A DNA stretch of 64,000 nucleotides, from positions 368-64,367 of the forward strand of contig CAZXIV010000002.1 of assembly GCA_964640945.1 (NCBI GenBank). The letters run 5' to 3'. Shown here piece after piece: positions 6,666 through 6,704 of this stretch (position 1 is its first letter; each line of letters opens with the position of its first letter). The DNA is from an uncultured Candidatus Peribacteria bacterium. GTDB taxonomy: Bacteria > Patescibacteriota > Gracilibacteria > Peribacterales > Peribacteraceae. The position numbers were made by a program, and so were the translations under genes. Below the pieces are notes generated by a model. It made no database searches. It was not told the DNA's origin and saw only the letters and a program-made list of their open reading frames with translations.

Positions 6666-6704
6666 ATCCGTCACTCTCCTTTATCCCCTTTTTCTCTTCT
6701 ATTT

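Follow-up and report, generated by a model that had tools for sequence, protein, structure and literature searches.

Upstream sequences in the window

The DNA analysed here, referred to as the window, is a stretch of 64,000 nt (C2:368-64367) in a Peribacteraceae MAG of 1.27 Mb (39 contigs, ~59% GC). The relatives closest to its L10 protein come from MAGs named Candidatus Peribacteria / Peribacteraceae, which places the organism among the Peregrinibacteria, a branch of the candidate phyla radiation. An earlier note on this DNA had quoted the letters in front of twelve start codons as pyrimidine-rich, and all twelve strings are exact matches in the window at the starts to which they were assigned. 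The pyrimidine fraction at these sites ranges from 0.56 to 0.96 in positions -25 to -1, and the count of G from 0 to 6. Ten of the twelve gene names were confirmed by Pfam (SecF, trigger factor, L10, L7/L12, ECF sigma, H+-PPase, S15, PNPase, YceI and a periplasmic binding protein), with domain matches that start a few residues from the proposed N-termini; the gene named "ytxH" and the gene at 36878 have no Pfam match. For the livK-like gene, 43623 is one among several possible starts. The pyrimidine-rich sites, with the rplL coding sequence, are as follows.

6666..6704, plus strand: rplJ-rplL spacer, a pyrimidine tract of 39 nt, 92% pyrimidines, no Shine-Dalgarno (SD) sequence
6705..7097, plus strand: rplL (L7/L12) coding sequence, ATG at 6705; Pfam Ribosomal_L12_N and Ribosomal_L12
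6005..6032, plus strand: pyrimidine tract ccccaattcgaccccttttttcctatcttt 5' of rplJ, ATG at 6033; Pfam L10 from residue 4
1236..1255, plus strand: pyrimidine tract 5' of secF, ATG at 1256; -10-like TAGAGT at -36
50504..50535, plus strand: pyrimidine tract 5' of the H+-pyrophosphatase gene, ATG at 50536; Pfam match
35148..35171, plus strand: C/U-rich stretch 5' of the ECF sigma factor gene, ATG at 35172; Pfam match
21263..21285, minus strand: pyrimidine tract 5' of rpsO, start at 21262; Pfam match
20591..20611, minus strand: pyrimidine tract 5' of pnp, start at 20590; Pfam match
46845..46862, minus strand: pyrimidine tract 5' of a 115-aa gene, start at 46844; pyrimidine fraction 0.96; TAGGGT at -36
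57298..57315, minus strand: pyrimidine tract 5' of a yceI-like gene, start at 57297; TACAGT at -35

The spacer between rplJ and rplL carries no G in its final 25 nt, and we interpret it as a putative internal ribosome-landing region for rplL. A metatranscriptome (X30) provided a single contig (6593-6859) covering the end of rplJ, the tract and rplL; the runs labelled "RNA?" (X6, X9-X11/X25) have even depth across 20 kb and the rRNA spacer, and are DNA-like assembler contigs. An Rfam scan of the window found one tRNA only, and nothing from the L10-leader family before rplJ. The TAGAGT box at -36 of secF suggests a short leader of ~23 nt. The -10-like boxes near -36 of secF, yceI and the gene at 46844 are a weak hint that these genes have leaders of ~20-25 nt, nearly all of which would be tract.

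Scarcity of Shine-Dalgarno sites

To extend these observations to the genome, 1,058 genes were called with a purpose-written finder that is based on dicodons and makes no use of upstream sequence. We define "unambiguous" starts as those that are the earliest candidate in their frame and have no competitor within 12 codons; this choice is blind to motifs and yielded 359 starts. The finder is crude, and two further sets served as checks on it. One consists of 55 gene pairs that overlap by ATGA, in which the overlap fixes the start and the letters before it belong to the coding region of the preceding gene; its control is a set of 349 internal ATGs matched for frame. The other consists of 17 ribosomal protein genes of the S10-spc cluster, the starts of which were set by orthologue alignment in 20 genomes. 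SD words (GGAG, GAGG and AGGA) were counted in positions -20 to -4.

SD words precede 10% of the 359 unambiguous starts and 11-12% of internal ATGs, whether in or out of frame, in agreement with the earlier note's impression that canonical SD sequences are rare. They are found at 2.8% of ATGA-overlap starts, and their frequency among leadered and operon-internal starts (2.8-11%) is at or under the control level. Complementarity of at least 5 nt to the 16S tail was observed at 12.8% of starts, compared to 10.0% of controls. None of the 17 ribosomal protein starts carries an SD word (0%), whereas the figure for the same genes in E. coli K-12 is 82%. The three exceptions singled out earlier, GGAG before 18242 and 25414 and the site of a 42-aa ORF at 14032, are present as described.

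Predicted promoters at start codons

The position profile of starts has T at -12 and -7, A at -11 and G at -14. The hexamer TANNNT has its first base at -12 in 63 of the 359 unambiguous starts and at -13 to -15 in 56 more; elsewhere it is mostly found 0-8 times per position, with up to 11 at -16 to -20 and none at -11. When 255 sites were aligned on the hexamer, the consensus was TAnACT, with G at -2 (56%) and TTG at -23 to -21 (40-43%). The TTG, which was not a selection criterion, lies 17 nt from the hexamer, the canonical spacer. Judged by its sequence, the box at starts is a complete predicted sigma-70 promoter (TTG-17 nt-gnTAnACT). In about one third of starts it ends 6-9 nt before the ATG or GTG. 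Examples from the window are given below.

2156..2161, plus strand: TAAACT -10 box at -14..-9 of tig, ATG at 2170; near-leaderless promoter rather than C/U leader
55417..55422, plus strand: TAGAAT -10 box at -12..-7 of ATG 55429, predicted leaderless
42437..42442, minus strand: TAGAAT -10 box at -12..-7 of GTG 42430, predicted leaderless
21446..21451, plus strand: TACGAT -10 box at -12..-7 of ATG 21458, predicted leaderless
16980..16985, plus strand: TACAAT -10 box at -13..-8 of ATG 16993, predicted leaderless or with a 1-nt leader

A -10 box at -12 to -7 would place the transcription start at the first nucleotide of the start codon. Start codons in the promoter class are ATG (71%), GTG (28%) and TTG (1%), a bias that fits transcription initiating at a purine. 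C/U words are rarer in this class (19% vs 40%). We predict that about 30-35% of the genes are leaderless or have leaders of 1-3 nt, with transcription start sites that would lie at the start codons.

The string aaactcccctcct before tig had been listed among the C/U leaders. The string is there, but its reading as an mRNA leader failed, as it is mostly the TAAACT box. The recurrent "ACTCC" seen at tig and elsewhere can be explained by a TAnACT box running into a GC-rich discriminator. The earlier note did not distinguish this class of starts: the tract is real, but for about one third of the genes the upstream letters appear to be promoter DNA, not mRNA.

A pyrimidine tract at the remaining starts

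The C/U words CTCC, CCTC and TCCT occur in positions -20 to -4 of 33% of the 359 unambiguous starts, 15% of internal ATGs and 10% of antisense sites, so the pyrimidine richness described in the earlier note exceeds chance. In the ATGA-overlap pairs C/U words reach 72%, compared to 26-27% in the controls. The enrichment of C/U words is 2- to 5-fold, and TCCC alone precedes 35% of starts that lack a promoter box and 6% of controls. Over the 15 positions from -21 to -7, ATGA pairs average 10.1 pyrimidines vs 7.3 in controls (Mann-Whitney p = 5e-16) and 2.8 G vs 4.4 (p = 2e-11). At -18 to -10 the pyrimidine fraction is.71-.72 in ATGA pairs and.48 in frame-matched controls; G falls from.28-.31 in controls to.13-.18, and A from.22-.23 to.11-.15. 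Starts without a promoter box have a C maximum of 47% at -12/-11. In the ATGA pairs the signal thus takes the position of a ribosome binding site, consists in a loss of both purines and extends even to coding sequence. The coding strand overall is slightly C-rich (C.32, G.29). The 3' flanks of genes show no such richness in pyrimidines (C.31, G.26), and neither do regions further upstream of starts.

No specific word could be found in the tract. Motif discovery by expectation-maximisation from seven seeds, including AAGGAGGT, always converged on YYYCCTCC, which holds 4.4 bits over 8 nt and describes ~64% of sequences. Ratios of observed to expected counts for 4-mers and 5-mers inside pyrimidine runs range from 0.55 to 1.48 (CTCC 1.1, CCTCC 1.26), and the runs show mild T-before-C polarity only. 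Neither the seven-seed search nor a tally of every 4-mer and 5-mer made of pyrimidines supported a specific word, which was rejected in favour of a degenerate tract. The strings do look like the anti-SD, as the earlier note remarked; the meaning it suggested for this likeness found no support, as the tract is a degenerate run in which CTCC and CCTCC show no specific over-representation. Because no single word stands out, we regard the likeness as a by-product of mixed C/U composition. An A-rich motif ~9 nt upstream of starts is not present either: the fraction of A in -20 to -1 is.11-.19, below control.

Native leaders are predicted to fold less than altered ones, suggesting that the tract keeps the start region open. 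The mean minimum free energy for -35 to +30 is -12.2 kcal/mol with the native leader, -16.1 with the leader reverse-complemented and -16.5 with C and G swapped. At internal ATGs it is -17.8 kcal/mol (p < 1e-12).

Conservation among relatives

Comparison with sister genomes, which the earlier note had proposed, revealed pyrimidine-rich, G-poor leaders almost devoid of SD sites before the 17 ribosomal protein genes in 12 of 12 Peribacteraceae. Values for positions -20 to -1 were as follows.

12 Peribacteraceae (39-61% GC): pyrimidines.64-.84, G.03-.14, A.13-.26, SD 0% (one genome 6%)
8 genomes from other families of the class: pyrimidines.44-.67, G.03-.09, A.27-.51, SD 0-12%
E. coli K-12, same 17 genes: pyrimidines.31, G.32, A.38, SD 82%, C/U words 0%

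In the genome studied here, the same 17 genes have C/U words at 82% of starts, SD words at 0% and a G fraction of.13. We consider the absence or rarity of SD words and the avoidance of G to be class-wide, as judged from these genomes. The preference for pyrimidines over A would be a trait of the family Peribacteraceae, independent of GC content: leaders of family members at 39-42% GC are still pyrimidine-rich (.66-.84), while those of sister families of equal GC are A-rich. In a sister genus represented by G017, run through the same pipeline over 462 kb, 31% of starts have a promoter at the start and 4% an SD; leader composition is C.40, T.30, A.20 and G.10. Candidatus Peribacter riflensis has been tabulated as SD-scarce, lacking CCUCC, with 7% SD genes (PMC10783764).

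The 16S rRNA tail and rare strong Shine-Dalgarno sites

The 3' tail of the 16S rRNA, another point that the earlier note wished to see inspected, retains the canonical anti-SD CCUCC (...GGAACACCUCCUUA). The 16S copy on contig C35 is cut by the contig end, and contig C13 opens with the missing part (...GGAUGGAACACCUCCUUACCAGGGAG). CCUCC is found in congeners as well; two genomes, G007 and G008, have UCUCC (ACAUCUCCUU), and G017 and G018 have UUUCC, in the form AC(A/G)UUUCCUU. The erosion of the core among sister genera indicates that SD pairing is under relaxed constraint, as expected if SD sites are little used. With the lack of SD enrichment and the 0% of ribosomal protein starts that carry SD words, it upholds the earlier suggestion of SD-independent initiation for most genes.

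In every case, the anti-SD has its own complement 5-7 nt further downstream, and the two vary together. The paired changes between anti-SD and trailer are CUCC...GGAG to UUCC...GGAA, and also CCUCU...AGAGG and GCCU...AGGC. A count of covariation gave three double-sided cells, a result matched by 25 of 500 shuffles and therefore suggestive only. The trailer UUACCAGGGA(G/A) is kept across the genera of the family; the spacer past the trailer is divergent.

Long matches to the 16S tail occur at a few genes; the majority, for example the neighbours C8:40671 and C8:41161, score low as coding sequence and may be foreign. The site before the 42-aa peptide gene lies in the window.

14036..14045, minus strand: SD site AAGGAGGTGA, nine bases of which (AAGGAGGTG) are a perfect complement of the 16S tail

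This site sits 3 nt before the GTG of the peptide gene, which follows valS and occupies 13904-14032 on the minus strand. The peptide is Cys-rich and hydrophobic, and is conserved in the genus. Its strong SD is kept in congeners, as AAGGAGGTGT in G003 and GAGGAGGT in G004. Because CCUCC is intact and a few conserved genes have perfect SD sites, the ribosomes of the genus are probably still capable of SD pairing. Residual use of SD sites may be the reason that CCUCC has survived in the genus.

Two proposed routes of initiation and their alternatives

We think it probable that translation in this organism starts almost wholly without SD pairing, by two routes. By the first, a sigma-70 promoter would end 6-9 nt before the codon, transcription would start at its A or G or within 1-3 nt of it, and the ribosome would bind the 5'-terminal ATG or GTG directly. 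By the second, which would serve most other genes, including operon-internal and overlapping cistrons, a degenerate C/U tract at about -18 to -10, poor in G and A, would lie on the 30S platform in place of the SD helix and keep the initiation region unfolded. The tract is most likely a binding site for bS1, a protein that favours single-stranded pyrimidine-rich RNA. A handful of mostly atypical genes that keep strong SD sites would form a third group. This proposal builds on the observed sequence architecture, the observed position and statistical excess of the tract, its conservation within Peribacteraceae and the near absence of SD pairing sites; to these it adds presumed transcription start sites, a presumed role of bS1 and a presumed functional effect on translation. 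The candidate bS1 homologue is a protein of 433 aa with about four S1 domains, which matches the rpsA model from 4 to 346 with 262 bits, under the curated cut-off of 577. No Ribosomal_S21 match (E <= 0.01) was found in the genome studied or in four congeners, in accord with published data on ribosome composition (PMC9297842). Sequestration of the anti-SD by bS21, as in Bacteroidia, was rejected for the genus on the grounds that bS21 was not detected.

The tract might instead be a passive feature, what remains after selection against G and against SD-like purine words has produced an unfolded start, with no recognition involved. Its degeneracy would be expected on that reading (no word exceeds expectation by more than 1.5-fold, and the motif holds ~4.4 bits over 8 nt), as would the weaker predicted folding with native leaders and the occurrence of G depletion and SD absence or rarity throughout the class, including families with A-rich leaders. 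However, A is depleted along with G at -18 to -10, though A-rich RNA is equally unstructured, and the family members at 39-42% GC are pyrimidine-rich while sister families of the same GC are A-rich. The depletion of purines persists in G017 despite its decayed anti-SD, so avoidance of SD words cannot be the sole reason for it, and the enrichment has a defined positional peak. Positive recognition is favoured because A is depleted and pyrimidines are preferred at every GC content, when A-rich leaders would be equally open; we consider a purely passive origin unlikely.

A different kind of recognition, an inverted form of SD pairing, can be imagined from the 16S trailer. The 3' end of the 16S rRNA would be extended as far as GGGAG or GGGAA, a segment 6 nt past the anti-SD, and the extension would be folded on the anti-SD; the C/U tract would displace the anti-SD and pair with the G-rich tail; in a weaker version the extension would merely mask the anti-SD in cis, leaving the ribosome blind to SD sites. 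A mature 16S end at ...CCAGGGAG would fit this model, and an end at ...CCUCCUUA would not. The trailer UUACCAGGGA(G/A) is conserved and changes in step with the anti-SD (from CUCC/GGAG to UUCC/GGAA). A degenerate tract is compatible with such pairing, since either pyrimidine can be a partner for G, and the tract is at an SD-like distance. The top 5-mer also shifts, from TTCCC/CCTCC in the genome studied to TTTCC in G017, in which the anti-SD is UUUCC, but such changes in favoured words are slight (n = 37, against 21 expected) and carry no correction for multiple testing. CTCCC, which would be the perfect complement, shows no enrichment (0.96-1.09), and the count of covariation is weak (three double-sided cells, 25 of 500 shuffles). 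A complement of the anti-SD just beyond the 16S end is also found in Bacillus and in cyanobacteria and plastids, where it is lost at maturation, which counts against the model. Pairing of this kind seems to us quite improbable.

We give still less credence to the idea that the tract is an artefact, whether of mis-called starts that have true SD sites elsewhere, of strand or mutational bias, or of a transcription signal such as a Rho loading site. The gene finder is crude, the coding strand is somewhat C-rich (C.32, G.29) and Rho binds C-rich, G-poor RNA. Yet the signal is strongest at the starts fixed by orthology in 20 genomes and by ATGA overlaps, effects of codon position were removed by the frame-matched controls, and neither 3' flanks nor regions further upstream are pyrimidine-rich. 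The tract, at 10-15 nt, is much shorter than a Rho site, and no rho gene was detected at the family cut-off in any of 31 related genomes, for which reason a Rho loading site was rejected. The artefact reading is largely refuted.

Implications

Literature on Peregrinibacteria, Patescibacteria and the candidate phyla radiation in connection with SD or leaderless initiation yielded the table entry in PMC10783764 and the study PMC9297842; neither the tract nor the promoters are described in what was found. In the literature searched, no earlier report of a leaderless-rich start layout was found for a lineage of the candidate phyla radiation, and the layout that combines leaderless and pyrimidine-tract starts was found described in no paper.

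Gene callers that rely on SD sites or on a single motif will misplace starts in such genomes. Single-motif models fail on a mixture of promoter box and tract that share one distance from the start codon. The misplacement touches all predicted Peribacteria proteomes, and probably those of related candidate phyla radiation lineages too. Two modes of SD-independent initiation, pyrimidine-tract and leaderless starts, would be combined in one small genome. The family includes genera with intact and with decayed anti-SD sequences, and is thus a series in which the loss of SD pairing can be studied. The same series bears on the role of bS1 in reduced ribosomes that lack bS21, and on the perfect SD sites that have been retained.

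Comparison with known systems

Pyrimidine-rich initiation would add a third flavour of SD-independent initiation beside the A-rich Bacteroidia and the leaderless Actinobacteria. In group C of the GeneMarkS-2 classification (Actinobacteria and Deinococcus-Thermus), a Pribnow box is found 6-8 nt from the start in ~25-50% of first genes (PMC6028130). The genome studied here resembles that group, and the leaderless transcriptome of M. tuberculosis, in having a -10 box at a fixed distance (here in ~33%) and an ATG or GTG that is, in our case by prediction, the first transcribed codon. It differs in its remaining genes, which use SD sites in group C but carry the pyrimidine tract here.

Group B of the same classification has a non-SD, A-rich signal (PMC6028130). 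In Bacteroidia, as represented by Flavobacterium johnsoniae, sequestration of the anti-SD needs bS21, and a strong SD is kept on rpsU (PMC9976891, PMC13000453). The genome studied here shares with this group a retained anti-SD, the near absence of SD sites and a non-SD signal at the distance of a ribosome binding site, at both first and internal genes. It also shares a rare strong SD on a small gene, which is rpsU there and the gene for the 42-aa peptide here. The signal itself is different: that of Bacteroidia is A-rich, whereas here pyrimidines dominate, A is depleted and bS21 was not detected. The sister families in the class of Peribacteraceae look A-rich, as Bacteroidia do.

The entry for Candidatus Peribacter riflensis (PLoS One 2024, PMC10783764) concerns the same family-level lineage and agrees in its low number of SD genes. 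It is a table entry only, without leaderless promoters or the tract, and the genome studied here, unlike that one, retains CCUCC.

Initiation that depends on S1 and is independent of SD sites occurs in cyanobacteria and plastids. The Peribacteraceae starts resemble bS1 leader systems in having a pyrimidine-rich stretch, predicted to be single-stranded, just 5' of the start; the S1-domain protein of 433 aa would be the candidate bS1. The leader segments that bS1 binds are pyrimidine- or U-rich (Boni et al. 1991, as cited in PMC10783764). The tract differs from U-rich S1 sites in being C-rich in the GC-rich members of the family. In E. coli the S1 site adds to the SD; here it would replace the SD genome-wide.

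The 16S rRNA 3' tail

Within the family, the anti-Shine-Dalgarno (anti-SD) sequence of the 16S rRNA is followed immediately by a conserved trailer, which reads UUACCAGGGAG:

Contig C13, ~245-275 (locus L050) of the source genome, and loci L022-L038 of relatives: conserved 16S trailer, directly 3' of the anti-SD

Judged from the sequences, the anti-SD can serve as a pairing partner for this trailer, a possible fold-back. In other genera the two elements vary jointly (UUUCC...GGGAA, CCUCU...AGAGG and GCCU...AGGC), and the core of the anti-SD is mutated in several sister genera. 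Elsewhere, the 16S rRNA gene departs from the Rfam bacterial model by an insertion of ~104 nt (locus L001, 1577-1681, on contig C35 of the source genome), which lies in the first hairpin region, at model positions ~83-89.

Sequences upstream of start codons

The features considered here are the following:

Window 13904-14045, minus strand: 42-aa peptide gene including its SD, downstream of valS (14050-16749)
Contig C8, 40671-40946 and 41161-41397: two small genes, neighbours of each other, of 91 and 78 aa
Contig C1, 98448-107038: V/A-type ATPase operon, then the pyruvate kinase and enolase genes
Window 5949-5995: GC-rich hairpin, then TTTTGTTTT, just 5' of the rplJ pyrimidine tract

No SD in the window is stronger than AAGGAGGTGA, found ahead of the 42-aa peptide gene, which has a terminator of its own and encodes a hydrophobic, Cys-rich product with the C-terminal end ...WLIWKYCF. 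Both the peptide and a strong SD before it are kept in three congeners, in genomes that otherwise avoid SD sites. The best SD matches of the whole genome, TAAGGAGGT and CAGGAGGTG, belong to the two small genes on C8; their coding scores are low, and the pair may belong to a stretch of mobile or foreign DNA.

The G-free C/U spacers of the ATPase operon region, including taattctttttcttttacttcttttttcttttcattcc before enolase, rank among the purest in the genome. The hairpin upstream of rplJ looks like a terminator or attenuator; a search for a match to the Rfam L10 leader at this site found none.

Public data sets and a same-class relative

Sequence nearly identical to that of the source organism, over the whole window, is present in many unrelated public data sets (runs X1-X43), which include metagenomes from fish, mosquitoes and surfaces as well as a large number of "RNA" runs that all belong to a single host organism. 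Depth in them is even and DNA-like. This pattern suggests a widespread bacterium that is water-borne or reagent-associated.

The Peribacteraceae genomes contain no in-frame TGA codons of the kind seen in rplB of a same-class relative, G028 (contig C12, 19218-20051). That gene has four, in keeping with the TGA-recoded (code 25) lineages that the class includes.
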